A DNA stretch of 59,021 bases from an uncultured virus (IMG/VR IMGVR_UViG_3300021446_000194) (IMGVR_UViG_3300021446_000194); one strand, 5' to 3'. Numbered from the stretch's first letter, positions 11,538 to 54,717 are shown. Made by a program: numbers and translations. The notes: generated by a model not told the origin, from the letters alone.

Positions 11538-12071
11538 ATGGCGGAAGCCAAATGCATCAACGACGACTGTGACAAAGAAGAAACGTGGACACTCAGGAAG
11601 CCCGTGCCAGAGTACAGCGGCGGGGTAACCTGCCCCGAGTGCGGGTCAACCCGCACAGAGATTCACGGTGAAGAGACGGCCAACATCACCGAGGTACAGA
11701 CGGCCAACGTCCAGCAGGCACAGACACCCGCGCAGAGGGGCGGTGAAGGCCGGATGTCTGGGGCTGAAGCGACGCTCGCTCTCTTGGACGGGGACCTGGA
11801 CAGGCGCAAGCGAGCTGAAGGGGCAAGCAAGGTGCTTTCCTTCGGTCAAAACCTCCTCCAGACGGCAGCCGAGTACGCGGAACAAAAGGACGAGGCAAAA
11901 AGGCAGCAGGCACAGCGGGCGAGCGTCGAAGCTGAGACCAACTACCCGGACTGTCCCGAGTGTGGGTTCACGTTGACCGAGGACGAGATCCCCCTGGGCG
12001 AAGAAAAGGTCCGCTGTCCCGAGTGTAAGGCCGTACTCCGTGTTAACCTTCCTGAGCAACAGGAACCGTAG
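11538..12071 (+). CDS. Zinc-ribbon protein
   Basis: CxxxxC, CPECG, CPECG and CPECK. Confidence 0.8.
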   Translation: MAEAKCINDDCDKEETWTLRKPVPEYSGGVTCPECGSTRTEIHGEETANITEVQTANVQQAQTPAQRGGEGRMSGAEATLALLDGDLDRRKRAEGASKVLSFGQNLLQTAAEYAEQKDEAKRQQAQRASVEAETNYPDCPECGFTLTEDEIPLGEEKVRCPECKAVLRVNLPEQQEP

Positions 12072-12498
12072 TCGGACCGAGGCGAGATAGCTCGACCCAA
12101 CTGGGGTCGTCCAACACTTCACCCTTATCAACCCGCAAGCTTTTCTCCGTCTCGTGAGCCAACTCTGGCGATCCGAAATACACACCCTCGCAGTCCTCGC
12201 CGTAGCAAGGGTCGCCGTTTTGGGTGTCAAAGTCCACTCCAAGAAGAGCAGTAGCGCCAAACTTTGACGCCCAATACCGTAGGTGCTCCACCTCTTCCTT
12301 CGTGAAGTATACTCTTCGCTCCCCCGGACATTTCAACTCCCCGGCGATCTGCACTTCTCCAAGGCCTGCGAAAACATCAGGACTCTCACGGTCAGTCCCT
12401 CCACCGGACGCTGGCGCTCGAAGGACAGCCCACCCCTCCGAGTCGAGTTTGTTCGCAACTTTCCGCTCCGACCGATTTCCCTTTTTGTTACTCGGCAT
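12043..12498 (-). CDS. hjc: Archaeal-type Holliday junction resolvase
   Basis: KGNRSERKVA..L...GWAVLRAPASG...PDVFAG...GELK, a PD-(D/E)xK Hjc signature. Confidence 0.9.
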   Translation of the reverse strand: MPSNKKGNRSERKVANKLDSEGWAVLRAPASGGGTDRESPDVFAGLGEVQIAGELKCPGERRVYFTKEEVEHLRYWASKFGATALLGVDFDTQNGDPCYGEDCEGVYFGSPELAHETEKSLRVDKGEVLDDPSWVELSRLGPTTVPVAQEG

Positions 12499-26800: not shown

Positions 26801-27327
26801 CCGAGCCCACTTCGGAGCCCCAACCCGAGCCTGTTGGCGAGTTCAACACCTTCGAGCAGGCCGTCGAGGAACGCGGGCCTATCCAAGTGGAGGTGTTCGC
26901 GCTGGAGCGCGGCTTCGGTAACGTATTCGGGCTTCGGCTCCCCGACCAGCCGGAACTGACGCAGAAGGAGGGGGAGGGCGTCGCCGATCAGGTTGCCCAA
27001 GAGCTGTTCAGCGAAGTCGACCCCGACGAGTACGCCCCAGGCGAGGCTATCGGAACGGCTGTCGTCTCACCTGACCGCGTCGAGAGTATCGAAGTGGGCG
27101 GCGTCACGGACGACCAGCCAGCCCAACCTGCGACTGATCCCGAACCGCAGTCCGGTGGGTCTGCCGCGGAGCAGATGGGCCGGATGGATACCGGCGACGT
27201 GGAGATTGATGAGCTAACCATCGAGGATCTGGACATCGAGGAGGTGCGGGTCGGTGATGTCACCGCGGAGAACGTCAACACCAAAGACGTGCGGGACATT
27301 CGGTCCGACATCGAAGAAGACATCTGA
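20866..27327 (+). CDS. 2153-aa acidic protein with two tandem N-terminal PCNA domains, a central HhH motif and Pro/Glu linkers
   Basis: Domain 1: DPEELRDTPEPP, ADGDTDD, YSLDLL, EFPV, YIVSPR. Domain 2: IDPANVG, IDPDAIRADPSLPDLEL, EYLGKMIDAIP, GVELPV, IAPR. HhH: LEEVSQVGPSRAEVLEEDG. Confidence 0.85.
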   Translation: MVFPTFEVKVSNQVLRPTVSAADQITDEAVYEVSEKVLKTEVVDAGQNTYAETVTELGAEEEVNVEMPGQFGVSTASLSSALNDLSKRQDVILSGEAVSAEIEVVDPQSGDVVSSLGMKDPEELRDTPEPPQINWDAEVEMNGGDFREVHLAAKKVSNNLTLGVADNPERGETGKALLAYADGDTDDIGFYPDFEFTGIGSPPGDVGAIYSLDLLGDLRNSIDKPSSTALRLRFSGVEFPVEASFSIGPESETSVRYIVSPRLKQTDWELTDDLGAIDPSSYGFSEVGFRLGTDGEHGRALFDLMGMYADEYRIIARETGIESASIDPANVGLISTQADPSYFDIYEEVAGFPQQQVGIASRNIEELLKRFNKRDDFELAVSSNRRYVALQHPLFTARLATIDPDAIRADPSLPDLELTSEAQVPSDELVNTLSPMVGKDRVAGYIVGNGEAWLVADAFSGGSASQLQTSSVNGRAFTALSGEYLGKMIDAIPGIPGGSVRMRAGVELPVAFEYQTGGGDLTAVSTIAPRQITDDFPEKIRDMKEAIPNGRDVLNWIDPANPDDWDNPDFSVSAFSGAKIEPLSERVRAERLQSYPVELDVEFTHFGESDEAWSYEVDEMEVTGNRGRKRDTTVYLELEDGEDFGASDNAIRSALEDVGDAFDFSLIDTGERVAQATFSSEDEYTVELLNVQPNTNHAITTSDGYRIRSLTRDDNEYIYTSAPDETPAEGRVAFRAVEDPQGSTFGFYLDMIDNDDVEARASVTGLPSISQAYGAMVEWIRNHTLEDAVETAGGEVTVSDREVRDQLSELADTYVDYNMEERPGSGVDEGEFYAALVGKLNVLPDASHRADISVRTPTEQRPTYKVDWTVSIMPSRLGGLVDSQHLGDNDIGETDDKADVPGMVEEAIRTLSGYSPYLARRDNEDVPPQNARNLPGFRENDIRSYVDASLPVPKEELASEIAADADGPPVELEEVSQVGPSRAEVLEEDGVFDVIDVAVLLSSTKTSFLSTTLVNLPETPRESIQEAAAKVWARYIWPKRELPDGYDRIGSGDAEPPETDSDPVLEEDTSPEPPDIDDLPSAFGDWEATTMDDASPVYAREFEINGVEVQSQVSVQPANDGETWEVIHSIATFGDDGSEVNSFTVDTGYESVEMAVPFLATYLGDEALEDIAEKMPSVEAPPDDEDEEEAAMEPDSDPDPSETPEQPPEPSDGGGDGGDNVFPIEAEVTLVLDDGEAVVDVEASNLDAVDEETLGDFFDLMEIVADPTFRDPPDFIARAVFESPMEYDFVEYNEATEGLDPEDFDPPGGFETTTDEGVTKPDMEPLETWRAPGGEQVEIYRTTVYINPPLSDFTVEADIPPETAQEVVRNIEGYTLLNEREEQEPSQPQDQDSQEPPEPSRSEGTDESETEERPTPKADEPDVTVSEREDEKSVRGVPVSTIPDVLEPVLPGVEVEVDVTGNVVELRENVVPDAQDLFDGEPAVVTAQTGEGSDLFEQAVVAYNAAVDTDPLDVEAVNDARRNADLDIPLLDESPAVSESEEPEPEPVGGEDLPVTDQDRVELQELAEVLNNEQIPGETRAEEASETVDSILQSAYPNTIEDSRVDLDFGRGGGLRALVLTAQLTSQKRDDIAGRSIWADPGPQGGTVVQFRILGDPNNPVSLIQSFEKVMDGLDETRPGNQRLKDKLDHIEDFTTFKFVRGNVDLDKSFISAPEMRALLPELAEEIQRSFDAHLQNIDAAYYAAQKVHEVDTGGDIRGRLEQSVGDFPSPGSRAEMLEKALGALDSGDFEPGVFFRRYYDSIARDTPSDIWEERGIVTDDDEEEESEPEPEPESEPEPDSTEREPGPEPESEPSPGGEEPTQQGVEEKDTSFSEMSEVVTDLSAVEEELEEVVGNTRLGDIGDPTVADEAREALTEVQEIKGVLSEKSLGEVQPSDITQARFAVDIGQAAVENMETAAEESADPGPEPQPEPTPEPQPEPTSEPQPEPVGEFNTFEQAVEERGPIQVEVFALERGFGNVFGLRLPDQPELTQKEGEGVADQVAQELFSEVDPDEYAPGEAIGTAVVSPDRVESIEVGGVTDDQPAQPATDPEPQSGGSAAEQMGRMDTGDVEIDELTIEDLDIEEVRVGDVTAENVNTKDVRDIRSDIEEDI
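26764..26833 (+). repeat. Tandem coding repeat (PEPQPEPT)n
   Basis: About 24-nt units such as GAGCCCACTCCCGAGCCCCAACCC. Confidence 0.8.
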
Positions 27328-27406: not shown

Positions 27407-27832
27407 ATGAGGAGAACGGTCGAAGTTATTCCCCCATCGGTGGTGACTGCTCCCGTTCCTGCTGGCGACGACGCGGACTATTCGGTGTATCCGCCTCGCC
27501 TTCTCCTTCCGGGAGAGGCGGTCCGGTGGTCGTCAGACCTCCACCACGTCTGCCCCCGCTGCTGGGACGTATTCACCCTCCGAAAGCACGATTTTGATGT
27601 CTCGGAGGGTGGTGATATAACGGTGAGTTCGTCCGTCGCCTGTCCGCTGTGCGGTCTCCATACCTATATTCGAGATGGGAAGCACGAGGACCCACTCGAA
27701 GAATATGGGAGCCCAGCAGAGGACTGGGAACAAGCCCGCCGAGAACGAGTCCAGTTACTTTTGGGGTACCGCCCCACGGCCACCCAATTAGTGATTAAAC
27801 AGCACTATCCGGGGTTCTCTCCCAACGTCTGA
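27407..27832 (+). CDS. Zinc-binding protein, DUF6527-like
   Basis: CPRC...ITVSSSVACPLCGLHTYIRDG. Confidence 0.5.
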   Translation: MRRTVEVIPPSVVTAPVPAGDDADYSVYPPRLLLPGEAVRWSSDLHHVCPRCWDVFTLRKHDFDVSEGGDITVSSSVACPLCGLHTYIRDGKHEDPLEEYGSPAEDWEQARRERVQLLLGYRPTATQLVIKQHYPGFSPNV

Positions 27833-27950
27833 GTACCGCCGTATCGTAGCACCCTGTGGCGTCGACGGCCGTCGTTTTTGCGCTCCCAAATATGACCCCA
27901 CTTCGGCGCCTCCCCCGTGAGACCTAACCCAATGCGGCGGGTAGTGGCGG

Positions 27951-28223
27951 GTGGATATGAAGGGATCAGAGCCAGCAGGACATAGCGAACGGAAGGTGCA
28001 GGCCCTCGCTCTACTCCGCGCACACGGGCCGCTGACGGTGGCTGAGGTCGCCGATGCTGCTGGGGTCACTAAGACCAACATGGAGAACGTGCTCATGCGC
28101 TGTCGTCGGTCTGGATACGTCGAGAGTGAGGGTGGAGAGTTCCGGCCGGGGCAGGGTCAACAGCCCGCGGAGTACGATGTGACCAGCCGGGGCGTGGCGC
28201 GGCTCCAGTACGAGGGCCGGTGA
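27951..28223 (+). CDS. Winged-helix transcription regulator
   Basis: GPLTVAEVADAAGVTKTNMENVL...GYVE...YDVTSRG. Confidence 0.85.
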   Translation: MDMKGSEPAGHSERKVQALALLRAHGPLTVAEVADAAGVTKTNMENVLMRCRRSGYVESEGGEFRPGQGQQPAEYDVTSRGVARLQYEGR

Positions 28224-28320
28224 GGCTGGATCTGGCTTAGGGAGGTATGGGGTGGCGATGGCTGGGGAGGTGAGATCGGGGCTGAGGTGGTGTCAACTGA
28301 TCTACCGCTAAGTTGTGCAA

Positions 28321-28452
28321 GACGTTAAACGTCTTTTCGTAACTTTACTTTTCCGCGCTAAACAAAGTTGTTTTGGCGTGTTAGTCGCTCTACTCACTGT
28401 TAACCGTGAGAACAGGGTGCGGAAATATGTATTTCCGAAGGACTTAACTACC
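28321..28452 (+). promoter_or_regulatory. AT-rich control region with palindromes and a BRE/TATA-like box
   Basis: GACGTTAAACGTC (28321), CTCAC-N8-GTGAG (28393), GGAAATA-TG-TATTTCC (28421), then GAAGGACTTAAC. Confidence 0.6.
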
Positions 28453-29303
28453 ACCCGCTGCACAGACACATTGAACGCGACGCGAGACGACGCAAAGCGC
28501 GACGCGGCGACGTGGCGCGCTGCGTGGTAGTCGACGACCGGCGCTCGTCGGACGCTCCCGACGACGCTGCCGAGGCCGGACGCGGATACCCGGACCTCGG
28601 CCTGTCAGCGAACGCATGTCGGCGTTGCCGGCCGCTGCGCCGCTGTCGCCTGCACGCTCCGCCCCGCAACCCCATGACGCACGCGGGACGCCTGTGCTCC
28701 GCTGCTGGCGGCCTCACGGTCGCTCTCACGAGGCAGGCGAGCCCATCACGTCACGAACCCACCGACGAGCCGACAAGGCGCGGGCTGACGGGCCGGCGTC
28801 GCCTCACGGCGGCGCGACAAGGCCCGGGCCGACGCGCCGGGCTCCGAGGGATCGAGACAGGCATACGGCGGCTGATGTCGTCCCGTGCCGCGAGTAGAGG
28901 GGAGCGGAGCACAACGCCAAGCCGGCAGGATAACCGCGAGGTGGACCGCCCGGTGTCCGGGTTGTCGGGTTCGATCCCCGGCCGTGACCCTGACGGCGTC
29001 GGCGTTGTCGGCGGGTTTTGGACCACTAACCGCTACCCGGTGGGCACTCTCTCGGCTGCGAGGCCGACGAGCCAACGCCGGAAGACCGCACGACGACGGG
29101 AACGCAACGAGTAGGGCCGGATCGAGAGACCCGACCCGCGGGCCGACGCGAAGCCGTACCCAGAGTGCGACACTGTCCGCTGATTCCTCCGCTGCGGGTC
29201 TCTGACCCAAATGCGGGATCAACTGGTCACACACACCTAAACCGCAACAGTCCGGCCGCTCGAACCGCGGGCCGTTGGGCTGTTGTGGGGGTGTTGTTCG
29301 ATC
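28450..29303 (+). ncRNA. Candidate large structured RNA or long 5' leader
   Basis: No acidic ORF; dense nested inverted repeats; T-loop-like arm at 28965-28981; several UCAC-loop hairpins. Confidence 0.55.
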
Positions 29304-29615
29304 ATGTCTGATACCGACAAAGTCAGCCCGGACGAGCTCCGGGAGCAACTGGAGGACCGCCACGGAGTCGTTGCTGTCGACTGCTGGGAACCCATCGAGG
29401 ACCACAACGAGCGGGTCAGCGACGACTTTAAGCAGTTCCCAATCACCGTGAGGAGCGGGGATAGCGGCACGCCGCTGTTCGCGGAAGTGAGACAGGCTGG
29501 ATGGTTCGTCGCGGGAGCGTACCCGCACGCACACCCGGATAGATCGGGATGCTGCACGACGCTACTGGTCCGCGACGTGCCGCCCCAAGAGACCGTCCCC
29601 ACGGCCGAGGCGTAG
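29304..29615 (+). CDS. Hypothetical cassette-like protein
   Basis: Acidic ORF following a hairpin and GGGGGTG motif. Confidence 0.75.
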   Translation: MSDTDKVSPDELREQLEDRHGVVAVDCWEPIEDHNERVSDDFKQFPITVRSGDSGTPLFAEVRQAGWFVAGAYPHAHPDRSGCCTTLLVRDVPPQETVPTAEA

Positions 29616-29679
29616 CAACCCCGCTGTGCTGGCTCGCGCTGGCACTGCGGCCTTCCCAGCACCATGCTGGGGGTGTGCT

Positions 29680-30129
29680 ATGACTGAAGCCAACCCGCTG
29701 CCGACTGCAAGTCAGGAGGATTGGACCGAAGAGGATCGCGCGCTTGCCGCCACCGGCGACTTGTGGAAGCCCGACGGCGACGACAACCCTGCCGCCACCG
29801 GCAGTAGAGCGACGACAAACGACGGGCGAGTCTGGGATGTCGCTCCGTCGACTGTCAGCGTCGACGACAACCGGGAGGTCCGAATCTCTCCCCCCGACCG
29901 CGACGGCTGGGTCACATGCGAGCCGACACACCCAGCGTCGGGCAAATGGACTCCGAACCCCATGACCACGGTTATGACTGTCCCACGGGACGGTCACGAC
30001 TACGTCGCCGTTTTCAGGCGTCTCACCTGCGGGGCCGGGACGGTCGGGTACCGGCTCCGCTACGTCGGGCCCTACCTGCACTCCGGAGGTGCGTACTCTG
30101 AGGCGTTCCCCGTCGAGGGGGTTTACTGA
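29680..30129 (+). CDS. Hypothetical cassette-like protein
   Basis: ORF bounded by two repeat copies. Confidence 0.75.
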   Translation: MTEANPLPTASQEDWTEEDRALAATGDLWKPDGDDNPAATGSRATTNDGRVWDVAPSTVSVDDNREVRISPPDRDGWVTCEPTHPASGKWTPNPMTTVMTVPRDGHDYVAVFRRLTCGAGTVGYRLRYVGPYLHSGGAYSEAFPVEGVY

Positions 30130-30189
30130 CCGACACGCCGGCTCGTGCCGGCGTTGCGGCCTACCCCGGAACAGCCGGGGGTGTGACCT

Positions 30190-30693
30190 ATGTCCAACGA
30201 CCACGGCCTATCAGTTGGCGATGTAGTACAGAAGCAGAACGCCCAACGGCTCGACGTTATCGCGGTTTCCGACAACGACGGCGCCGTAACGCTCGTGCCC
30301 GAGGGAAAGCGCACTATCGGCTTCGGCGACCCCGAGACGTGGGGCGCTGAAACCGTTGCTGGCTTCATCGAGAACGGCGACATAAAGGTTCTCGATGGCG
30401 ACAACGACGCCGACGAGTTCGGCGGCACCGACGACCTGCCTGGACGCGCCCAAGCCCGTGAGATCGGCACGACGCTGGAGATCCGCACGAGGGAGGCCCA
30501 ACACGGCTATGTTGCAGACTTCGAGCGGGGTTCCGAGTTGGTGGGAGAGATGCTGAACATCTCCCACTCGGCGGCGTCACTCTCGCCCGGCGCAACGCTG
30601 GAGTTCGGCGGAGACCGTCGGAAGCGCGTTACCGTGCTCGATCAGGGAGCGAGCGGGAGCCTGCTTGCTGTCGAGATCGGCGACAGAGACTAA
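30190..30693 (+). CDS. Hypothetical cassette-like protein
   Basis: ORF bounded by two repeat copies. Confidence 0.8.
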   Translation: MSNDHGLSVGDVVQKQNAQRLDVIAVSDNDGAVTLVPEGKRTIGFGDPETWGAETVAGFIENGDIKVLDGDNDADEFGGTDDLPGRAQAREIGTTLEIRTREAQHGYVADFERGSELVGEMLNISHSAASLSPGATLEFGGDRRKRVTVLDQGASGSLLAVEIGDRD

Positions 30694-30756
30694 CCGCCTG
30701 CGGTACCGGCTCACGCCGGCGCTGCGGCCTTCCCAGCACCGCGCTGGGGTGTGACC

Positions 30757-31119
30757 ATGACCGAAGCCACGACGACGGACGACGACGAGGTACAGCCCGA
30801 GGACGTGATCAATGGCTCAAGGCTTGCCCGCGACTGGGAGCCCGAGGACTGGCGGCAGGCATACCGCAACGCCGGCAGTGTCGAGGAGGCTAACGACGTG
30901 GCTCAAGCCTTCAAGCTGCTGGATTCTGGCCGTTGGTGGGACATGTGCCAAGAGGTGCACAAGGTCTTTGGCTGCTCAGATAAATCCGGCCGCGAAGCGT
31001 TCGCGGAGGCCCACCCGCAGATGGTGGAGTGGGCAAGCGTTTGGGGACTCTGCGAGCATATGGCGCGCTTCCCGCGCCACACGGAGGCTAGCGAGGAGCG
31101 GCTAACCTTCCGCGACTAA
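30757..31119 (+). CDS. Hypothetical cassette-like protein
   Basis: ORF bounded by two repeat copies. Confidence 0.8.
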   Translation: MTEATTTDDDEVQPEDVINGSRLARDWEPEDWRQAYRNAGSVEEANDVAQAFKLLDSGRWWDMCQEVHKVFGCSDKSGREAFAEAHPQMVEWASVWGLCEHMARFPRHTEASEERLTFRD

Positions 31120-31183
31120 AAGCGCCGCTGGGCCGCCTCACGGCGGCGCTGCGGCTTCTCCCGGACCGCCCGGGGAGTGTGCC

Positions 31184-31402
31184 ATGAACTCGACAACAGT
31201 CCGCGAGACCGAAGAGTATGGACAGTTTGCACCGTCGGGCTACACAGTCGCCCCGCTCGGTGACAGCTACGTTCGGTTTTTCGGCGGGTTCAGAGTCGAA
31301 CCCTCCCGTCACTGACAGGCCGTCACGCATGACGTGCTCGTAGATCAGGACGGTAGCGTGCAAGTACATATCAACGGAACGCCGCTCGCAGAACTCCCGT
31401 AA
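31184..31402 (+). pseudogene. Cassette-like ORF interrupted by an in-frame TGA at 31313-31315
   Basis: The frame stays open after the TGA to a TAA that overlaps the next repeat copy. Confidence 0.6.
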
Positions 31403-31456
31403 CGCCACCTCACGGCGGCGCTACGGCCTACCCTGGCACCGTGCCGGGGGTGTGAT

Positions 31457-31777
31457 ATGACCACCGAAGCCAACGCCGACGACTTCGCGGCAGAGATGGA
31501 CAGCAACCCGTGCGGCCGCCGTGTCGGCCTCCGAGCAGTCGGGCCCTACGTGCTCGAACGCTACGACGATCTGATTACTGCCCGCCGTCGACGCAAGAAC
31601 GGCGATGAGTTACAGGAGCGGATCGGCGTTTGGGTCAAGGACCCCGACCATTGGCGGACGTACCGCAAAGTCGGATCGTTCAGGGCCGTAGCAGCCAATA
31701 TCGCCAAGATGTGGGACAGGCTGGACGACACCGATGCCGTCGCCGAGTGGGTCGAAGAGTACCCATCCGACATCTAA
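31457..31777 (+). CDS. Hypothetical cassette-like protein
   Basis: ORF bounded by two repeat copies. Confidence 0.8.
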   Translation: MTTEANADDFAAEMDSNPCGRRVGLRAVGPYVLERYDDLITARRRRKNGDELQERIGVWVKDPDHWRTYRKVGSFRAVAANIAKMWDRLDDTDAVAEWVEEYPSDI

Positions 31778-31842
31778 CCGGCCGCGGTGCCGGCTCATGC
31801 CGGCGCTGCGGCGTCCTGGGGACGGTCCCGGGGGTGTGTTCG

Positions 31843-32103
31843 ATGGTACGAGTTCGAGACCTACATTTCCGCCGACGACCCGGCTACTGCGTAGAGTTTG
31901 ATAGATTCGGGCTGTTCGTTCTCTCCGAGCAGCAGCTCGACGCGGTCGCCGAGGCCGTCGACACGATCAAAGCCGAGACCGCCGACGCTAACGAGACTGT
32001 TACCGGCAGCGTCCACGTATCCGGGGCGAACGCCCGGATCGTGTGGGACGATCCGGACCGCGACCCGCTGGGTCCGACCGATGTAACGCCGGAGGCTGTC
32101 TAA
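31843..32103 (+). CDS. Hypothetical cassette-like protein
   Basis: ATG directly after a repeat copy. Confidence 0.75.
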   Translation: MVRVRDLHFRRRPGYCVEFDRFGLFVLSEQQLDAVAEAVDTIKAETADANETVTGSVHVSGANARIVWDDPDRDPLGPTDVTPEAV

Positions 32104-32219
32104 TGTCTCTCTGGTATAACGTCTGTCGGAACTTCCGACGGGGCGACGGGCTCGGCGAAGATCGGCAGGGTGAAACGTGCTGCTCCGAGTGCGGTACGAG
32201 GCTCCGCCCGAGCGGCTGA
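32103..32219 (+). CDS. Tiny Cys-containing protein (38 aa)
   Basis: TAATG coupling; CSECG; ends at the next repeat. Confidence 0.45.
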   Translation: MSLWYNVCRNFRRGDGLGEDRQGETCCSECGTRLRPSG

Positions 32220-32282
32220 AATCCCGCGGGCCGGTTCACGCCGGCGCCGCGGCTTTCCCCCGGAGCGGTCGGGGGTGTGACC

Positions 32283-32591
32283 ATGTCCGATCAAGACACG
32301 ACCGACGACGAGTATAACCGACCCGACGACGGTCCCGCCACGGGACACGCGGCCGTTGGGTTCGTGACCGGCCAACGCTTCCCCGACGGCGAGCGTCCGG
32401 AGGAGGTCCGGATCATCTACGAGCGCGACGGGAGCGAGCACGCGGCCGTTGTTCTCCGAACATCTGGCTCCGTCGAAATCAGCCCTGGCGACTCTGTGCG
32501 GTTCCAGACCGCCCGCACAAACGTAGGGAGCACAACCGACGTTGTGTATATCGACCGGCTGCTCGGGGCCCGCCCCGTTCCCGCCGAGTGA
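32283..32591 (+). CDS. Hypothetical cassette-like protein
   Basis: ORF bounded by two repeat copies. Confidence 0.75.
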   Translation: MSDQDTTDDEYNRPDDGPATGHAAVGFVTGQRFPDGERPEEVRIIYERDGSEHAAVVLRTSGSVEISPGDSVRFQTARTNVGSTTDVVYIDRLLGARPVPAE

Positions 32592-32640
32592 CCCCCCCAC
32601 GGGCTCGCTCGGCTTCTCCCGGCTTTGCCGGGGTGTGACT

Positions 32641-32940
32641 ATGTCAGAGACCGACACCGACACCGACACGGCGACCGTCAGAGAAAAGAAGTTCAACGGG
32701 ACGGCGACGTTCGAGATCGAAACAACGTCAGCCCGGAAGGCTAAGGCTGCCGCCGAACGCTTCTTCCGCGAAAAACATGGTGAACGTCCCACTGAGACGG
32801 TCGTACAGGAACGCGACCACAACTACCACTGCATCCACGATAAAGCCGACAAAAGCGACCATTCGCTTTACGATGTGATAGTCACCGACCACAGTTCGGG
32901 GACTCATGCAGATGTTGAGACCTACGAGTTCGACCAGTAG
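32641..32940 (+). CDS. Hypothetical cassette-like protein
   Basis: ORF bounded by two repeat copies. Confidence 0.75.
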   Translation: MSETDTDTDTATVREKKFNGTATFEIETTSARKAKAAAERFFREKHGERPTETVVQERDHNYHCIHDKADKSDHSLYDVIVTDHSSGTHADVETYEFDQ

Positions 32941-32992
32941 ACCCGCCTCAAAGCGGGCTGCTGCGTACCCGGCACCGCGCCGGGCTGTGACC

Positions 32993-33274
32993 ATGTCCGG
33001 CAAGGCAACTAACAACGGATGGAAAACTGATGATCCGATCTACAACCAATGCGAGTGTGGGCGCCACGTCCGAGGCGACCGCATCTGTGGGTGCGGTCGA
33101 CGGCAGGGAAAGGGACACACCTACATGGCGAATGGGAACACTGACAGGGCAGGCAACTACGCCGTCGTGGCTGGTAACTATCAGTGGGCAAGTGACACGT
33201 CGGCATTTGATACCCCTCCTGGCGTCGTTCGTGCGTCGGTTAAGGCCACCCTCGACGCCTCGGGGCTCCGATAA
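32993..33274 (+). CDS. Small zinc-finger protein
   Basis: CECG...CGCG; ATG after a repeat copy. Confidence 0.6.
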   Translation: MSGKATNNGWKTDDPIYNQCECGRHVRGDRICGCGRRQGKGHTYMANGNTDRAGNYAVVAGNYQWASDTSAFDTPPGVVRASVKATLDASGLR

Positions 33275-33524
33275 TGCCGAGTGTGCCTTTTGCGGCAAGG
33301 TGTACGTTCACTGGACGGTCCGCTGCGTCGACTGTGGCTATCTGCACGTGCAGGAGGAGCACGCATAACTGACGGCGAGGGTCATTCCCTCCCCGTCGCT
33401 TGGGGCCTGACACGCCCCTGGGGGCTGACACGCCCCCCACACCCCCGCAGATCAACGCTTACCGGCGCTGGGCGGTCCCCCCCGCCCCGCCGGCCTTTCC
33501 GGCATCGCGCCGGGGTGTGACAAC

Positions 33525-34100
33525 ATGGACGATAACACCGAGCGAAAGCAAACTCTGAGGACGGGGATGGACCTCGCTCAGCGCAACAAGTACCAAGCTC
33601 GAATCGACCAGCGGCTCAGGGACGCTTTTGAGAACCGCGAGGAAGCGGTCAAGCAGTCCAGAGACCGCTTTGCGAGAGCCATTGAGGAGGGCTGGACAAT
33701 CCGCCACGCCGTCGCCACGTCCGGCGCCCACGGGTGGCAGATCGAAAGTGACGACGATGGCCTCCGGCTGTCGGAAGGTGCGTACCCGGGAGATGTTTCG
33801 TGGTTAGTCTTTGAGAATGGTTGGATTCACCGCACCGGCGCGCGCTGGCTCAAAGACGACGACCTTGCCGCCTGGGTCCGCCGGAAGAAAGATAGTCAGG
33901 AGGCAATCACCGAGCGGCTGCGAGAAAAAGAGCGCGAGGCGTTTGAGGCTGATGACCGTATCCGGTATGCGGTGGACACAACCGGCGAGAAGATGCCGGG
34001 GTGGTGGGTTTTCAGGCCGACTGGTTACACCGGCACTCCTCGGCATGTTGTCGCGTATGCCGCCGGGTACGACGCTCGACAGGGCGGGGAAGAAGAATAA
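33525..34100 (+). CDS. Hypothetical protein
   Basis: ATG after a repeat copy. Confidence 0.8.
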   Translation: MDDNTERKQTLRTGMDLAQRNKYQARIDQRLRDAFENREEAVKQSRDRFARAIEEGWTIRHAVATSGAHGWQIESDDDGLRLSEGAYPGDVSWLVFENGWIHRTGARWLKDDDLAAWVRRKKDSQEAITERLREKEREAFEADDRIRYAVDTTGEKMPGWWVFRPTGYTGTPRHVVAYAAGYDARQGGEEE

Positions 34101-34176
34101 GTTAGAAGAGTGAACCACGTCGACGGGCCGGACCCGTCGGCGTCCTCTCACGGTGCGGTGCCGTGTGTTATTAGCT

Positions 34177-34752
34177 ATGCCAGAATACGGGATCTACCTC
34201 GATGTAGACAGTGACGGCGTGTACCTATCCGCGCCTGACCGCTACACGGGGATAACAGCAGCACAGCACGCGACCTACGTCCTCTCCGAGATCGTGGGCA
34301 GCCGCCACGGGGGAAACGCGCCCTACGCGCGGATGCTCATGTCGGCATCCCAGTGGCTCCACGACGCCAGGCAGTACGACTCCGCCCGGGGGATCGTCTA
34401 CTCGGATGAGGGGAGTGACGAACACCCACCGGCTCGGGGGCAGGTGGCGGACGTGTTCCTGATCCTAGCGGGAGCACACGCTGCCGACACTTTCGGACGG
34501 ACTGGGACAAAAAAGATGGAGGAGGGTGTTTCCTTCGCCAACGATCTGGCCGAACGCCTTGGCGACGAGATCGGGACGACGCCGATCAACCACGGACCAG
34601 CGGTTCAAGAGCCGGAGCGTATACACCACTATAAAGGCCCGTCATCGTTCATGCAGCAGCGGTTCTGTACCGACTGTGGCGGCGAGGCGACGGGTGAGCT
34701 CCCCGAGGGGGGAAAGTGCCCGTTCTGCGAGGAGAGTGGGACGCTGATCTGA
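34177..34752 (+). CDS. Hypothetical protein with C-terminal Zn ribbon
   Basis: CTDC...CPFC. Confidence 0.75.
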   Translation: MPEYGIYLDVDSDGVYLSAPDRYTGITAAQHATYVLSEIVGSRHGGNAPYARMLMSASQWLHDARQYDSARGIVYSDEGSDEHPPARGQVADVFLILAGAHAADTFGRTGTKKMEEGVSFANDLAERLGDEIGTTPINHGPAVQEPERIHHYKGPSSFMQQRFCTDCGGEATGELPEGGKCPFCEESGTLI

Positions 34753-34802
34753 CCACCCGAGGATCACACCTTGGGAGGTTCTATCCGCCACGCGGCGGAG
34801 GT

Positions 34803-35828
34803 ATGACCATGGAATGGAACCCGTCCGCTAAGTACGAGTTGTACCTGCATTGGATAGACGACATCCTCACGGACGAGAAGCGTACCGTTCGTGACGTTTA
34901 CTACGCACTCGAATCCCGGGGCTTCCCGGACGAGTGCGCGGAGCAGGGGTACGACTTCAAGTATCGGTTTGTCAAGAGAGCGGTCAAGAAAGGCAGGAGG
35001 GCGGGGTATATCGACCCGTCGATGATCGTTGACACATCCCGGCGGGCCGTCGAAATCCCCAGCGAGGGGTACGACGACCCAGTGGAGTTCGCCGGGCGAA
35101 TAATGTCGACGGTAGCGAGCGGCTACAATGAGAACTTCTGGCGGGACCAGGACCATTACGTCGAGGTATGGCTCGAAAAGCAGTCGTTGGCGTCGGTGTT
35201 TGCGCCGATCTGCGCCGAACATAACGTCCGACTTGAAGCCACCCGCGGCGACTGGTCCGACAGCAAGGTCTATGAGGCAGCACACCGACTGCTTGACAAG
35301 CTGAACGCGGGCAAGCAGGTGCGCGTGGTCTACTGGGGGGACTTCAACCCCAGCGGGTTCCACGCACCCGTCAGCGTCCAACAGACGCTCAAGCACTACG
35401 GCCTCGATCTGGGGCCGCGGCAGCAGGACGAGCCCCCGTCGCGGTATTTCGACATCTGGCCGCAGAGTGAGCCGTCGTCGTGGAGCGGGCACGAAGGCGC
35501 CGACATCATGTTCGAGCGCGCGGGGCTAAACCTCGAACACATCAAGCGGTACAGTCTGCCTGAAAACCCCAACCCTTCGTCTTCGGACAAGGACCGCCAG
35601 CTACGCGAGCGGTTCCGGGAGCACGTTTCGGAGGGGCGAGACGTGAACGTCGAGCTTAACGCCCTCAAGGAGTTCCACCGCGACGATCTCGAAGCAGAGA
35701 TCAGGAATGGGATAACGCAGTATATCGACACCACGCAGCGCGCGACCACCGAAGAGCGTGTGGGCGAGCGCCAAGAGGCGATTCAGGAGGCGTTCAACGT
35801 GGACAGAGACGCGCTGAGCAGCCTGTAG
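34803..35828 (+). CDS. Topoisomerase VI A/Spo11-like protein (Mini-A type; WHD plus TOPRIM)
   Basis: TVRDVYY (catalytic Tyr context), VEVWLEK, YWGDFNPSG, VELNAL. Confidence 0.8.
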   Translation: MTMEWNPSAKYELYLHWIDDILTDEKRTVRDVYYALESRGFPDECAEQGYDFKYRFVKRAVKKGRRAGYIDPSMIVDTSRRAVEIPSEGYDDPVEFAGRIMSTVASGYNENFWRDQDHYVEVWLEKQSLASVFAPICAEHNVRLEATRGDWSDSKVYEAAHRLLDKLNAGKQVRVVYWGDFNPSGFHAPVSVQQTLKHYGLDLGPRQQDEPPSRYFDIWPQSEPSSWSGHEGADIMFERAGLNLEHIKRYSLPENPNPSSSDKDRQLRERFREHVSEGRDVNVELNALKEFHRDDLEAEIRNGITQYIDTTQRATTEERVGERQEAIQEAFNVDRDALSSL

Positions 35829-36005
35829 ACCGACAGCCAACATCTTCACCAGTGTTGGTGTCTTCGGGGGCAGCGAGCCCCCATTGCGCTGCCACAGGCA
35901 GCCAGCATAGAGTCGTACAAACAGTCCGTCACACCCTCGCGCATCGCCGCTGTTCGCTTATCCGCCAGCGCCTTCACCGGGGCTGGCGGTATTCCCCAAC
36001 TGGGG

Positions 36006-36290
36006 ATGATCCAGATGCCGCAGATAGACCACGACCTTCTCGAAGAACTGGAAGAGGACTACACACCCTCGGCCGCCGCCGAGGCGAACAAGGCCACGCT
36101 GGTCGCTGCGATCCTCGAACGGGCCAGCGTTAGCTACGACGAGAAAGAGTTGGAGAAGACCGACCGGGTTAAGTCCCGACACCTGCGCTCGCTTCTCCAT
36201 GCACTACAGGACGTGGAGGAGCGTTCCGATGGTGGTGAACCCAGCTCGATGTCGACCGCGACGGACAAAAAGGGCCGCCGGCGTCGGTAG
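36006..36290 (+). CDS. Hypothetical protein
   Basis: Acidic helical ORF after a hairpin leader. Confidence 0.7.
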   Translation: MIQMPQIDHDLLEELEEDYTPSAAAEANKATLVAAILERASVSYDEKELEKTDRVKSRHLRSLLHALQDVEERSDGGEPSSMSTATDKKGRRRR

Positions 36291-36295
36291 CAACG

Positions 36296-36481
36296 ATGAT
36301 CGACGCTTCTCTGTGGGTTTACCGCGGCGCGGCGACGATGGCTTTCTGCTACCTCTCCGTGACGACTCTCGTCTTCTCGGTGTATATCGGCCTCGTTGAC
36401 GGAGCGGTCACGGCTTCAGTTGTGTTGGCGTTCATCGCTGCGGCGCTCGCCCTGTTTGGGCTGATCGTTTTGCCGGAGTAG
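36296..36481 (+). CDS. Small membrane protein
   Basis: Two hydrophobic helices. Confidence 0.65.
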   Translation: MIDASLWVYRGAATMAFCYLSVTTLVFSVYIGLVDGAVTASVVLAFIAAALALFGLIVLPE

Positions 36482-36565
36482 CATTTCGAGGCTGGTCAGA
36501 CAGCTTTCGAGGGTTCTGCCCGCGGGCTCACGCGAGGGTTCGCTCGGGCGGAGGTGTGACCAATC

Positions 36566-37996: not shown

Positions 37997-38052
37997 CTGA
38001 ACGGGCCGACAGACCACCAGAGCGACGGTCATTCGTCAGCTCTGGTCATGCG

Positions 38053-39028: not shown

Positions 39029-39094
39029 AGGATCGAATACACACTCTGGCGGCGGTCAGACGCCGCCGGGCATTGCGGTGACGGCCAAACCACG

Positions 39095-39640: not shown

Positions 39641-39693
39641 GTCGCGTAGTGGCGTTCACGCGCCACTCTCGCCTTCCCGAGAGGGGACTAACT

Positions 39694-39984
39694 ATGCAGC
39701 AGGGTGACCCAGTTCTGGTCAAGAACATGGATGGTGAACAGGCCCGAGCCGTGATTGCCGAAATAACCGACAAAGTTGCCGCCGAGGCGACTATCCCGAA
39801 AGGCGACGAAGAAGTGTCCGTCTCCCGCTACTGGGGAGGCAGCGTCGATCCAGACGAGGGCATTGTCGTCGTCCGGTTCCTGAAGACAGTGACACACGAT
39901 AACCGTCCGGCCGGGTACGGAGAAAAAACATACAGCTATCCCGAGTCGAAGGTTGAACCGCAGGACACGGGGCGAGAGGGGTGA
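39694..39984 (+). CDS. Small SH3-like beta-barrel protein
   Basis: GDPVLV...VVVRF...YSYPESKV pattern. Confidence 0.6.
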   Translation: MQQGDPVLVKNMDGEQARAVIAEITDKVAAEATIPKGDEEVSVSRYWGGSVDPDEGIVVVRFLKTVTHDNRPAGYGEKTYSYPESKVEPQDTGREG

Positions 39985-39991
39985 TTTGGCT

Positions 39992-40129: not shown

Positions 40130-40141
40130 GTATGTTTAAGT

Positions 40142-41087: not shown

Positions 41088-41299
41088 GCGTCGAGGACCC
41101 ACGCCTGTGCCCCGAGTGCCGCGAACCACGGCAGGGGCTTGTCTGTCAATGTGGGTGCGATCTCCGCGAGGTGGATGTCGTTTACTGCGCGGAGTGTTCA
41201 AAGCCGGCGACGAAAGAAGCGGCTGACCGCCAGACGTGGCAGGGGTCGTCTGTGGCACACGCCTCGAAGAGCGGATACTTCTGTCCAAACTGTCAGTAG
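41084..41299 (+). CDS. Cys-rich zinc-finger protein
   Basis: CPEC, CQC, CAEC and CPNC. Confidence 0.65.
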   Translation: MSVEDPRLCPECREPRQGLVCQCGCDLREVDVVYCAECSKPATKEAADRQTWQGSSVAHASKSGYFCPNCQ

Positions 41300-41348
41300 A
41301 TACTGTCGGAGCGCCTTTCACTTGGCGCCCCGTCACTTGGATTCAGCG

Positions 41349-42287
41349 ATGGCTGATCGGTATGACTATCGGATTGACCGGGATGTGGCCGACACGATCA
41401 AACAGCGAGTGAATGATCCGTCGGTCAACGCGCTTGACTGGGCGTGGCAGTACGTCGCACCGACGATGTCAGAGCGACGCCGCGCCCGGACGGCTACGCT
41501 ACTCTCTTTGGCGTCCGAACCCGACAGGAATGGCGTCCGGGGACGGATTCATGCCTTGTACCCCGGACCGGGAGGAACCGGAAAGACGGTGCTTCGAGAC
41601 TGGGTGAAAAATACCTTCGACTGCGCCTACGGCGTTGGTCCCGGATCGTCGGACACCGGGCTGCGCTACAACGCGAACGTGAACAAACCCGGAAAACTCC
41701 ACATGGCCGACGGGGGAGTGCTCTGTGTTGAGGAGTTCGACAAGTTCGACCGCGACGAATGGGAAGCAACCTACGAGTCCATGTCGGACGGCTACTTCGA
41801 GGTGGATAAAGGCGGCGTCGACGCCGAGATCGACGCCGAGACGCGGATCATCGCGGTGTGCAACGAGACACGGCCGTTTTCCCAACCACTACTCTCCCGA
41901 TTCGACTTCATCGTGGAGATGGACGAGTACGATGCAGCGGAGACCATCACCGTCGGCGAGGACATCACTGACCAGTTCATTTCGGCGTTCATCAAAGACG
42001 AAGACGGTGCCGCCCGGCCGTTCCTGCCGCAATACCTCTCCTACATACAGGGGTTCCGGCCGGGGCTCACGGATGACTTCGCCGGGCAGGTGAAGCAGTG
42101 TCTCCGACGGCTGGTCCACGAGGAGGACATGGTCGGGGACATCCGCGGGAAGGAGGCGTACCTACGTATCGCATACACGGCTGCGAAGCTGGATATGCGG
42201 GACGTAGAGGTGGAGGACTGGGTCCGAGCAGTCGATCTCGTCCATCCAGACATCGACGCCGCGGGGCTCTACTCAGACTTCCTTTGA
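41349..42287 (+). CDS. MCM-family AAA+ ATPase lacking the N-terminal domain
   Basis: RGRIHALYPGPGGTGKT, GKLHMADGGVLCVEEFDK, LLSRFDF, sensor-2 helix IRGKEAYLRIA. Confidence 0.85.
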   Translation: MADRYDYRIDRDVADTIKQRVNDPSVNALDWAWQYVAPTMSERRRARTATLLSLASEPDRNGVRGRIHALYPGPGGTGKTVLRDWVKNTFDCAYGVGPGSSDTGLRYNANVNKPGKLHMADGGVLCVEEFDKFDRDEWEATYESMSDGYFEVDKGGVDAEIDAETRIIAVCNETRPFSQPLLSRFDFIVEMDEYDAAETITVGEDITDQFISAFIKDEDGAARPFLPQYLSYIQGFRPGLTDDFAGQVKQCLRRLVHEEDMVGDIRGKEAYLRIAYTAAKLDMRDVEVEDWVRAVDLVHPDIDAAGLYSDFL

Positions 42288-42293
42288 CGGTGG

Positions 42294-50828: not shown

Positions 50829-51806
50829 TTACCCACCTTGCCGCCCCTTCTGGCTAAGCACGCCGCTCATCTCGCTGTGTTTCTGCGCGTCGAAGTGGGT
50901 GTACCGGCTTGCATCCGACTCTTTCCCGAGGTAGTCGCCGATCTCGTCGGCCGTATACCCCTGCATCCCCAACCATGAACCAACCGTGTGGCGGAAAAGG
51001 TGTGGATGCAGACGGCTCCCATCAACTTCAGGGTGGTCAGCCCGTTCCCCGATGCTGGTGACCAGCCCTCGGACGTAGGACTCCCGAACGCGGTTCTGGC
51101 CTTTGTACGGCTCCGTCTGATTGACCGTATCGTTCACGAAGAGTGCGCCGTCATCGCCGTCAACACGAGCATACTCACCGATGCCCTTAATGTACGCTCG
51201 AATCGCCTCAACGTCCTCCTCGTAGAGTAACCGTCGGTCGGTGACTTCGTTCCGCCGCTTGGTCCGCTCTACACGCACGAACCCCCCGACCGTACCCGCT
51301 TCGTCAGGATGATCCGCAACAAAGTCTTCGCCGCGGTGCTCCGTCGGCGGCTCAAAGACTACGTCGCCGCGGTCGAGGGCGACAAGCTCCCCGACCCGCA
51401 TACCTGTCCGAATGAAGAGCATGACCATCGCCAGATCCCGTGCATCTTCGCAAGCAGCCTCACGGACAGCAGAGAACTCCTCTTCACTCAAGTAGTCGGG
51501 CGTCCCTCCCGATGTCACCTCGAACCGCTCGCGGAACCATTGCTTCAGCGGCATGATGTCGACAGACCGATCCTCAACGACGAGATACTTCACAAACGCG
51601 GATTTCTCGACGTTCAGGGTCGAACCGGCAAGCATCGCCCGATCCATGAGGTAGTCCTGAAACTCAGAAGTCGTCACTTCACCGTCACCTGATCGCCACT
51701 CCTCGAACCGACGCAGGGCCCCGAGGTACTTCTGCATGGTCCCCTCGGCTAACTCTCCGTTTCTCACACGGGAGTTGAGGTACTTCTCGTACCGATCAAG
51801 CTCCAT
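50829..51806 (-). CDS. Tyrosine recombinase (XerC/D-like)
   Basis: TGMRVGEL, TK, HLFRH and RYTH catalytic motifs; N-terminal core-binding domain. Confidence 0.92.
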   Translation of the reverse strand: MELDRYEKYLNSRVRNGELAEGTMQKYLGALRRFEEWRSGDGEVTTSEFQDYLMDRAMLAGSTLNVEKSAFVKYLVVEDRSVDIMPLKQWFRERFEVTSGGTPDYLSEEEFSAVREAACEDARDLAMVMLFIRTGMRVGELVALDRGDVVFEPPTEHRGEDFVADHPDEAGTVGGFVRVERTKRRNEVTDRRLLYEEDVEAIRAYIKGIGEYARVDGDDGALFVNDTVNQTEPYKGQNRVRESYVRGLVTSIGERADHPEVDGSRLHPHLFRHTVGSWLGMQGYTADEIGDYLGKESDASRYTHFDAQKHSEMSGVLSQKGRQGG

Positions 51807-53397: not shown

Positions 53398-54717
53398 TCA
53401 GTAGCCCTCGGAGAGCCGTGCGCGGATGGGGTCGGCATCTGCGGCGTTGCCGCGGTGGGCTGCTGTGACCAGCCTCGTGGCCCGGTCGGGGACCGTGTTG
53501 CCCGTCCGCTCGTCGGCGAACTCGATAGCCGTTGAGTCAGAGCCTTTCAGCGGGAGCGCCTCGCGTAGCACCGCCGTTTCTGGACTGTATCCGGTTGCCT
53601 CAGTGTCTACGTCGACCTGACTCTCGTCGCCCGTGTCGTCACCATGCGGTTGACGGAAGTTCGCGCCGGTGAGCGCCGTCTCGGGGTCGTACTCGTCCCA
53701 CACGAAGACGTATATATCGTTCGTCGGTCGGATCTCGAAACTATCGGTATTCAGCGGCATCGTATCCCGTCCCCGTCGACGCACGGCAAGTAGCGGAACC
53801 CCGGGTTCGGCGAAGGGGTCGACAGTGTTGTTGTTGGACACGGTTGCTGTGTCAATAGACTGGTTTTGCGTGGTGCGCCCGGTGACGGTCCGGCGGATGT
53901 TCCGCCCAGAGCGGGTCGCCCCGAACACGGAGTATTGGACACCGCCGGTATAGAGTTGTAGGGGGTCGGCGGTGCCTTGGTTATCCACGATGAACTGAAT
54001 GGGGAGGTTCGGCGTCCCCATCGTGGGGGAGGTATCGGGCGTAAACTGGTGGACTGCTCGGAGGCGGTCGAGTTGCGCGTCGACGTACCCGATGGTGAGG
54101 GGGTTAGCGTTGTACCACGTGTAGGGCTGGTTCCACGTGAGCCCCGACGACAGCGACAGTTCACCAGCACCTTCGCCCGGGTCGAGGACGGTATCGCGGT
54201 TCCACTCAGCCTGTGCAACGGGCGAGCCGCCGACATGGGCCGATTCTTTGCGGAGGAACGCTGACAGGCCGTTGCTGTCGAGGAGGAGACCGAGGCCGTT
54301 CTCGATAGTCTTACTCGATCTATCATAGGTGAATGCTCCCCATATCATCCGACCGTGGGTGAGCTTGACCGCACCGTTGGAATCGAACTGGAGGTGCGTC
54401 TCGGGAATGCGGATGGCCTGCCCCGGCTCAGCCTGCGCGTGTGAAACGTACTCGCCGGAGATGGCCGTTCGGAGCCGGGCCGTGTCGCTGCCGGTCGCCG
54501 TCGTTGCCAGCTCTATCTCGCCGGTGCTGCCGGTGATGTTGCTTTTGTCGAAGTCGGTCCCGTTGGAAGCGTAGAACCACCGCTTTTTCGAGACGGGGTA
54601 GTCGGGGTCGATGGAGAACTGAACCGTCTGCGGAGCGGTCTTGCGTGCCCGGTACGGCGTGTCCGCCGCCTGCTCAGATGCAGGCGTTCCGACATCCGCT
54701 ACTTGGTCATAAGGCAT
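53398..54717 (-). CDS. Beta-rich (ConA/lectin-like) virion protein
   Basis: LATTATGSDTARLRT...WG.F....GLG...WY...NLPIQF pattern. Confidence 0.5.
   Translation of the reverse strand: MPYDQVADVGTPASEQAADTPYRARKTAPQTVQFSIDPDYPVSKKRWFYASNGTDFDKSNITGSTGEIELATTATGSDTARLRTAISGEYVSHAQAEPGQAIRIPETHLQFDSNGAVKLTHGRMIWGAFTYDRSSKTIENGLGLLLDSNGLSAFLRKESAHVGGSPVAQAEWNRDTVLDPGEGAGELSLSSGLTWNQPYTWYNANPLTIGYVDAQLDRLRAVHQFTPDTSPTMGTPNLPIQFIVDNQGTADPLQLYTGGVQYSVFGATRSGRNIRRTVTGRTTQNQSIDTATVSNNNTVDPFAEPGVPLLAVRRRGRDTMPLNTDSFEIRPTNDIYVFVWDEYDPETALTGANFRQPHGDDTGDESQVDVDTEATGYSPETAVLREALPLKGSDSTAIEFADERTGNTVPDRATRLVTAAHRGNAADADPIRARLSEGY

Follow-up and report, generated by a model that had tools for sequence, protein, structure and literature searches.

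A ten-copy double-hairpin element at the gene junctions of a viral ORFan operon from halite, a candidate intercistronic RNA signal

T4-type phages are known to carry repeated intergenic regulatory cassettes in front of ORFans, and a similar arrangement has been proposed for one haloarchaeal virus. In phages phi1 and RB49, promoter-early stem-loop (PeSL) cassettes extend from the upstream stop codon to the Shine-Dalgarno (SD) sequence and start of the next gene; each combines a promoter with a stem-loop that contains G-T pairs, and the cassettes are reported to cluster before ORFans in variable regions, to recombine with one another and to form mini-circles (Arbiol et al. 2010, PMC2839356). Halovirus HGTV-1 carries a conserved intergenic motif (Sencilo et al. 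2013, as cited in PMC3950731), at least 21 copies of which we saw directly in NC_021328. Here we analyze an intergenic element repeated ten times within 4 kb of an uncultured-virus sequence of 59,021 bases (IMGVR_UViG_3300021446_000194; the whole stretch is called the window below). The original prediction, made from the sequence alone, had singled it out as a candidate for an undescribed system, a label that is too strong in view of the phage and HGTV-1 cassettes.

The element is about 65 nt long and its ten copies (c1-c10) lie between 29610 and 33530, all on the + strand, each bridging an upstream stop codon and the ATG that follows it (Table 1). R1, a covariance model built from the ten copies, was run on both strands of the window and gave 44 matches at E<=10. 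The ten copies scored 48-89 bits (E 1e-12 to 4e-25) and the other 34 matches 17.9 bits or less. The pattern GGGGTGTG-N2-6-ATG was found eight times, always on the + strand within 29670-33527, against 0.19 occurrences expected, and a count of eight was reached in 0/100 shuffles. We conclude that the array is well beyond chance. The copies stand between stop and start where the original prediction had placed them; its range (29621..33527) leaves outside it two diverged extra members, c0 and c11.

From 5' to 3', the element consists of a stop codon, hairpin 1, a GGCNT linker with the invariant letters GC-N-T, hairpin 2, an SD-like GGGGTG and the ATG. Hairpin 1 had been described as a stem of about 13 bp; the hairpin is there, with 11 modelled pairs and small bulges, and 14 contiguous pairs are formed in c6 only. 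Its loop reads TCAC, TCGC, TCGT or TCAT (TCRY), as originally listed, in seven of the ten copies (c1-c7) and differs in c8-c10. Hairpin 2 has 6-7 pairs and a loop of 3-7 nt, mostly 5 nt. The first three or four G of GGGGTG end its 3' arm, so the SD is partly buried, as had been noted; the spacer from GGGGTGTG to the ATG, given earlier as 3-6 nt, is 2-6 nt. The sequence GTGTGAC is conserved 3' of hairpin 2. Other + strand genes of the window have GGAGGTG or GAGGTGA at the same distance before their ATG, hence GGGGTG occupies the SD place of this genome; it presumably fits the 3' end of haloarchaeal 16S rRNA.

In nine copies the stop codon lies 0-5 nt 5' of hairpin 1 or inside it. Three of these (c5, c8 and c9) have the stop within the 5' arm of hairpin 1. 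The TAA inside the c5 arm is matched by compensation in the 3' arm (CCGT/ACGG). The exception is c10, whose upstream stop is separated from the copy by a spacer of 152 nt; a tandem pair of 18-19-nt units (GGGGCCTGACACGCCCCT, GGGGGCTGACACGCCCCCC) was seen in this spacer at 33402-33438.

Both hairpins are present in the minimum free energy or centroid fold of nine of the ten copies, and c10 folds otherwise. In a model-guided alignment of the ten copies, standard pairs filled 91.4% of 175 pair cells. When the 3' letters were shuffled within columns, pairing fell to 79.2 +/- 1.8%, and 91.4% was reached in 0/500 shuffles; when partners were slid by 1-3 columns, pairing was 33.5-51.1%. Both sides have changed in 8 of 18 pairs (a count reached by 8/500 shuffles), with 19 double-changed cells (reached by 0/500). 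Compensatory arm variants of hairpin 1 include GCCGGC/GCCGGC, GCCGCC/GGCGGC and GCTGGC/GCTGGC. These data support the original claim that covariation is real and that structure has been selected over sequence. The stems contain 17 G:U but only 5 A:C appositions (one-sided binomial p 0.008, calculated on copies that are not independent). Since a transition in a G:C pair yields G:U or A:C with equal chance, this bias means that the + strand, which is the mRNA strand, must fold, in agreement with the earlier remark that the G-T pairs work on the top strand only. In the predicted folds the SD window is mostly paired (probability of being unpaired 0.01-0.26) and the AUG mostly free (0.42-0.98). No Rfam family matched the window at its gathering score; at E<=1, two unrelated weak matches were obtained on the minus strand within 28200-34300.

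The genes between the copies encode 43-167 aa, are co-oriented and are mutually unrelated, much as first described (best all-vs-all blastp E 1e-3, from an acidic N terminus), and they carry the coding signature of the genome, with a G+C fraction of ~0.45 at second and ~0.77 at third codon positions. None of the open reading frames (ORFs) of the operon body, g0-g10, matched Pfam above the gathering score or any PHROG. A single homologue was found for g2 (65% identity), and eight were found for g1 at E<=1e-3 among 1.84 billion representatives (best 45%); by these counts the array genes are near-ORFans. At the downstream edge the genes are conserved, with 36 homologues of g10 (46-66%) and about 170 of the topoisomerase-like gene.

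AT-rich 8-mers are clustered at 28340-28427; between 28430 and 34090 there are only three, all within genes and none in the ten copies. A terminator scan of 27500-47000 gave 18 terminator-like sites, none of which is one of the ten copies, whose linkers hold 1-3 T; by contrast, the + strand gene block ends, past the stop at 45659, in a hairpin followed by TTTTT that can be seen in the intergenic fold. A sigma-70 scan found no + strand site in the scanned region, that model being irrelevant for archaea. With neither a TATA-like stretch nor a hairpin plus T-run terminator in the array, and with unrelated near-ORFans between the copies, the simplest reading is one long operon that is promoterless inside, the transcript of which would start at ~28.35-28.46 kb and the internal cistrons of which would be begun at their SDs. 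Readthrough of the stop into the next gene was considered and dropped, as the intergenic lengths (64, 60, 63, 64, 54, 65, 63, 49, 52 and 152 nt) follow no frame rule.

Several features of the operon and of its upstream side were recorded along the way. The AT-rich region, just 3' of the winged helix-turn-helix (wHTH) gene, contains a perfect palindrome, GGAAATATGTATTTCC, at 28421-28436, possibly an operator at the array promoter. It is followed at 28460-29300 by ~840 nt of 72% G+C with no codon-position signature in any frame, a stretch that might serve as an origin, as a long structured leader or as a non-coding RNA. Two solitary TCAC-loop hairpins lie in this leader, one listed in Table 1 and the second at 28707-28724. 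A T-arm-like hairpin near 28960 was examined as a tRNA or attP remnant and rejected, since ARAGORN finds no tRNA; its short matches in 28 of 301 genomes (21-49 nt, query positions 72-138) are read as chance matches of G+C-rich sequence. Variant c0, ahead of g0, has the SD-like GGGGGTG covered by the 3' arm of its long hairpin. Gene g4 (31184-31402) has an in-frame TGA at 31313-31315 and stays open for 29 more codons up to the TAA inside hairpin 1 of c5; readthrough, a nonsense mutation or a sequencing error might account for the TGA. Gene g9 (32993-33274) overlaps a second open frame, 33030-33368, the end of which encodes a CxxC...CxxC zinc ribbon (region 32993-33372); the overlap may reflect a frameshift, programmed or in error. 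Another small zinc-ribbon ORF, 32103-32219, follows g6 by a stop/start overlap with no element between.

The two halves of the element have separate histories. Distances between copies calculated from the hairpin 1 half and from the half with hairpin 2 and the SD show no positive correlation (Mantel r -0.20). Copies c3 and c6 differ in 10% of hairpin-1 columns but in 59% of hairpin-2 columns, whereas c3 differs from c9 and c10 in 17% of hairpin-2 columns and in 37-50% of hairpin-1 columns. Simple duplication would have kept a single genealogy; the unlinked halves show that copies exchanged parts, with the break between the hairpins, in the linker, and recombination between copies is supported to this extent. 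The separate histories fit two functional modules, a 3'-end module of the preceding gene and a 5'-end module of the following one. Near-identical and ten in number over 4 kb, the copies would also be substrates for general recombination, which by analogy with PeSLs explains the mosaic halves. Thus the cassette idea of the original prediction keeps its recombined copies, but a site-specific enzyme is not needed.

The window sequence is present in four runs of one halite-metagenome study, one of which has 92% of the sampled words and is probably the source run. Contigs of this run were colinear with the window and showed no joints, although assembled contigs drop rare variants. Contigs of a relative from the same study (14,473 nt in run X2 and 3,988 nt in run X4) match the window at >=80% in three short places only: a leader stretch with a solitary TCAC hairpin (28771-28844); hairpin 1 of c4 (31125-31155, 2 of 31 positions different); and a stretch of c3 (30700-30751, 8 of 52 different). 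On the relative's contig they stand 785 and 1352 nt apart, in an order unlike that of the window, and past the c3-like SD the relative has an ATG four bases on and then codons unlike those of g3. Conservation is thus higher in the element than in the surrounding DNA. The 65% g2 homologue points to the existence of some orthologues.

Look-alikes were seen in that relative, and the scan of haloviruses and haloarchaea that the original prediction had called for gave no family elsewhere. Across 151 Halobacteria genomes, R1 produced three single matches of 26-31 bits and no genome with several. Among four genomes with relatives of the topoisomerase-like gene there was a single 31-bit match, in an archaeal metagenome-assembled genome (L115 1501-1583, minus strand) with two hairpins, AGGTGG and GTG; it is probably a look-alike gene junction only. 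Thirteen loci around topoisomerase-like homologues (51-61% identity; 8 genomes and 5 IMG/VR contigs) gave at best 18.6 bits with R1 and had no repeat family of their own. The only one of 401 haloarchaeal genomes with a g10 homologue, at a provirus locus, had neither an R1 match nor a repeat family. IMG/VR contained no g10 relatives and, by single-protein query, no close relatives of the topoisomerase-like gene. Pattern scans of IMG/VR returned 28 and 73 single-match loci, discarded as chance matches at R1 scores of <=16.8 and <=22.7 bits, and a gapped pattern of ~40 bits returned four loci from a metagenome contig collection, likewise set aside (R1 <=10.3 bits). In the collections covered, the element is so far restricted to this halite virus lineage.

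We propose, at about an even chance of being right, that the element is a two-module, lineage-specific intercistronic RNA signal acting in the + strand transcript of a promoterless ORFan operon. The first module, hairpin 1, would mark the 3' boundary of the upstream cistron, and might either shield that cistron from 3'-5' decay once the linker has been cut or insulate it from run-on ribosomes; since it abuts the stop, a terminating ribosome must open it each time. The second module, hairpin 2, would hold the beginning of the SD in its 3' arm, with the SD ~5 nt before the AUG, and translation start would be throttled or gated. Units of hairpin 2, SD, ORF and hairpin 1 would be reshuffled through exchange between the two hairpins, as a by-product of the kind seen with PeSL cassettes. 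An RNA element at gene junctions, the first option of the original prediction and the better supported of its two, fits all of the sequence evidence: the top-strand fold, the stop at or in hairpin 1, the half-buried SD and the lack of promoter or terminator signals.

Several points weigh against this proposal. The ten copies are paralogues of one genome, so the shuffle controls overstate their independence; the slid control, which retains relatedness, is still clear. Four of the 17 G:U pairs come from a single pair position at the base of hairpin 2. Minus-strand folds are about equally stable, so that energy alone picks no strand and only the G:U bias does. The relative was compared at >=80% likeness only, and its sequence between elements may consist of diverged orthologues rather than different genes. 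A simple termination-coupled switch was modelled and given up: an in silico block of the hairpin 1 5' arm leaves the SD unfreed. Finally, an invariant T stands 26-29 nt before every ATG, at the place of the TATA box of a leaderless gene.

Among the alternatives, the one that survives best, though we consider it unlikely, is an RNA operator, in which a virus or host RNA-binding protein reads the UCAC-type loop, GGCNU and the A-rich start of loop 2 and so switches ten ORFans jointly at the level of translation, as T4 RegA and coat-protein operators do. It would be a sub-case of the intercistronic RNA signal. Unpaired letters are conserved beyond the needs of the fold (the TCRY loop in seven of ten copies, the invariant linker letters, GTGTGAC), solitary TCAC-loop hairpins recur twice in the leader and once at 39648-39667, and the SD is half buried in all copies. 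Shared recent ancestry and gene conversion may, however, account for the loop conservation, the loop motif is missing from c8-c10, and scans of Pfam, PHROGs and NCBIfam gave no candidate RNA-binding protein.

A true gene-cassette system of an archaeal virus, in which units of hairpin 2, SD, ORF and hairpin 1 would be cut and joined at the GGCNT linker by a putative recombinase, with integron-like logic and unrelated parts, is improbable at perhaps one chance in ten. Such a system would be the source of ORFan diversity in the early region. Its expected traces are the unlinked genealogies of the halves and a relative in which a c4-type hairpin 1 is followed by another second half, and the sequences contain both; general recombination of the PeSL kind accounts for the same halves.

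The hairpin 1 inverted repeats might instead be double-stranded DNA operators bound by a dimeric regulator, such as the wHTH protein encoded just upstream, which would block or tune transcription like mycobacteriophage stoperators. The sites are intergenic and in one orientation, and hairpin-1-like repeats also occur in the leader. But co-varying arms offer a protein no fixed sequence, an excess of G:U over A:C is meaningless in duplex DNA, and hairpin 2 with its tie to the SD is left unaccounted for; we rate this reading slightly below the preceding one and as quite improbable.

Still more doubtful, and very improbable in our estimate, is the second option of the original prediction, that the top strand folds as single-stranded DNA into integron-like sites at whose inter-hairpin linker the tyrosine recombinase of the window excises and inserts units. 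The co-oriented, promoterless array of unrelated small ORFs with structured, sequence-variable sites is what such a system would look like, exchange between the two hairpins did occur, and both a tyrosine recombinase and an Hjc resolvase are encoded. The recombinase, however, is a generic Xer-like enzyme: its best NCBIfam match, archaeal XerA, scores 63 bits where the cut-off is 220, XerC and XerD come next, all of them far below their cut-offs, and none of its six NCBIfam matches is an integron-integrase (IntI) model. The gene is on the opposite strand, 17 kb distant from the array and beside a virion-structural PHROG gene, as an ordinary integration enzyme would. Integron attC sites have paired R and L boxes and a conserved GTTRRRY crossover core, whereas the invariant letters of the ten copies are C, G, G and T in the linker, GGG and ATG, with no conserved GTT core and no R/L box pattern. 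Tyrosine recombinases use a crossover region of 6-8 bp, for which the 4-nt loop is too short. The strand that folds is the coding strand, the SD and abutting stop codon at each site point to RNA, and the probable source run gave colinear contigs. On these grounds service of the array by this enzyme was not borne out.

Each copy might also be a promoter for a leaderless mRNA, like the cassettes of HGTV-1 and the PeSLs, with the invariant T as a degenerate TATA box read by a special TBP/TFB pair; we hold this equally improbable. The position of that T and the promoters within the known analogues (PMC2839356 for the PeSLs) speak for it, but the linker has only 1-3 A/T letters (CCTTCC, CCTACC, GCGTCC) in place of the TTTATATA-type boxes of HGTV-1, A/T letters are also missing around -10, and a leaderless mRNA would have no use for an SD-like motif.

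Table 1. Coordinates of the element copies, related hairpins, the operon and other genes of the window
Feature	Coordinates	Strand	Description	Evidence
c0	29242..29306	+	variant ahead of first gene g0; single long hairpin, g0 ATG at 29304	-46 kcal/mol, z -5.1
c1	29616..29682	+	g0 stop, hairpin 1 (loop TCGC), linker, hairpin 2, GGGGGTGTG, g1 ATG at 29680	R1 75.3 bits, fold
c2	30130..30192	+	loop TCGT; g2 ATG at 30190	R1 75.1 bits, fold
c3	30694..30759	+	loop TCAC; nearest to family consensus; g3 ATG at 30757	R1 89.3 bits
c4	31120..31186	+	loop TCAC; inner stem GCCGCC/GGCGGC; g4 ATG at 31184	R1 74.9 bits
c5	31397..31459	+	TAA 31400-31402 within hairpin 1 5' arm; g5 ATG at 31457	R1 72.7 bits
c6	31778..31845	+	loop TCAT; 14 contiguous pairs; g6 ATG at 31843	R1 68.7 bits
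c7	32220..32285	+	loop TCAC; g7 ATG at 32283	R1 72.3 bits
c8	32584..32643	+	hairpin 1 diverged, TGA stop in 5' arm; g8 ATG at 32641	R1 48.0 bits
c9	32935..32995	+	hairpin 1 diverged, TAG stop in 5' arm; g9 ATG at 32993	R1 68.9 bits
c10	33466..33527	+	hairpin 1 diverged (C-rich loop), hairpin 2 and SD typical; g10 ATG at 33525	R1 59.7 bits
c11	39641..39696	+	diverged outlier: stop, 8-bp hairpin (TCAC loop), GCCTTCCC, short hairpin 2, GGGG, ATG at 39694	R1 12.6 bits
Solitary hairpin	28796..28815	+	hairpin-1-like, 8 bp, loop TCAC, in non-coding leader	R1 partial 14.2 bits
Promoter-like stretch	28290..28450	+	sole AT-rich, promoter-like stretch upstream of array; candidate transcript start	
Operon body g0-g10	29304..34100	+	13 small co-oriented ORFs	coding GC signature
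wHTH protein gene	27951..28223		small; just upstream of array	PHROG and NCBIfam matches
Topoisomerase-like gene	34809..35828		flanks array downstream	
MCM-type helicase	41139..42287			profile match
Gins51/DEAD protein			encoded in window	profile match
Tyrosine recombinase	50829..51806	-		profile match
Hjc resolvase	12043..12498	-		profile match
Methyltransferase-like gene			encoded in window	profile match
PHROG 'virion structural protein'	53398..54717	-		PHROG match

The window begins and ends with an identical 55-base direct repeat (1-55 = 58967-59021) that starts with A10. Hence the genome is complete, circular or terminally redundant, and has ~58,966 bp; the window has a G+C content of ~60%. 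Its gene content (Table 1) points to a haloarchaeal virus or provirus-like element. The only match of the topoisomerase-like gene in the phage collection was Haloarcula californiae icosahedral virus 1 (HCIV-1), at 69% DNA identity, and the window had no match in the plasmid collection. An ORF of 2,153 aa at 20866-27327 matched neither Pfam nor PHROGs. A second intergenic repeat, in two copies that are 72% identical (43115-43188 and 44309-44382), lies ahead of two other + strand genes; it is unrelated to the ten-copy element, and an AT-rich stretch precedes its first copy. Several further + strand junctions (34101-34176, 34753-34808, 36482-36565, 39029-39094 and 40472-40526) show a hairpin past the stop codon and, ahead of the ATG, an SD (GGAGGTG, GAGGTGA), while standing outside the repeat family, with which 36520-36565 has GGCTCACGC and GGTGTGACC in common. 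Hairpin punctuation seems to be typical of this operon's junctions, including most + strand junctions downstream of the array.

How does the element compare with described systems? Like integron attC sites, it is structured, sequence-variable and placed between promoterless, co-oriented cassettes; unlike an attC array, it comes without IntI or a conserved core, folds on the other strand and is tied to stop and start codons. Bacterial REP/BIME sequences (repetitive extragenic palindromes and bacterial interspersed mosaic elements) are imperfect G+C-rich palindromes that follow stop codons in operons, stabilise the upstream mRNA and show compensatory changes; they number hundreds per chromosome and are tied to RAYT (Y1/HUH) transposases. 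Hairpin 1 resembles them in its position just after the stop and in its likely RNA role. The present copies, in contrast, all lie within 29.2-33.5 kb except for one at 39.6 kb, and no Pfam match to a Y1/HUH transposase was found among the 78 ORFs scanned. In the early transcript of phage T7, RNase III cuts at intercistronic hairpins leave a protective 3' hairpin on the upstream cistron and a fresh 5' end on the downstream one. The present element is likewise an intercistronic hairpin in what would be a long early transcript, in which cleavage is conjectural; RNase III is not known from haloarchaea, and another nuclease would be needed.

The HGTV-1 motif is closer in setting, as it too belongs to a haloarchaeal virus, has an inverted repeat and is present in many copies ahead of small ORFs without an assigned function. 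It differs in its AT-rich, TATA-like boxes flanking a 7-bp inverted repeat (CTCCTCG..CGAGGAG), both of which are missing here, and R1 run on 61 kb of HGTV-1 gave one 15-bit match only, with no sequence relation. With PeSLs the element shares its composite, repeated make-up, its place ahead of ORFans between a stop and the following SD and start, and the signature of recombination. PeSLs, however, combine a strong promoter with a terminating stem-loop and are the only one of the two for which mini-circles were demonstrated (PMC2839356), whereas the present element has no promoter- or terminator-like signal and has two hairpins, the second overlapping the SD. The literature searched, which leaves most subscription journals aside, describes no promoterless two-hairpin intercistronic repeat for an archaeal virus. 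Our best reading is therefore that the element represents a promoterless, RNA-level variant of the repeated intergenic regulatory cassette of PeSL/HGTV-1 type. If so, the array would offer a compact model for how internal cistrons of haloarchaeal polycistronic mRNAs are delimited and translated at molar salt, and for the turnover of virus ORFan regions; the clean division into 3' and 5' modules, each with its own history, predicts the exact place of the exchanges. Where the cassettes of T4-type phages both control and reshuffle ORFans, as has been suggested for HGTV-1, the element described here would be their purely RNA-structured, single-operon version.

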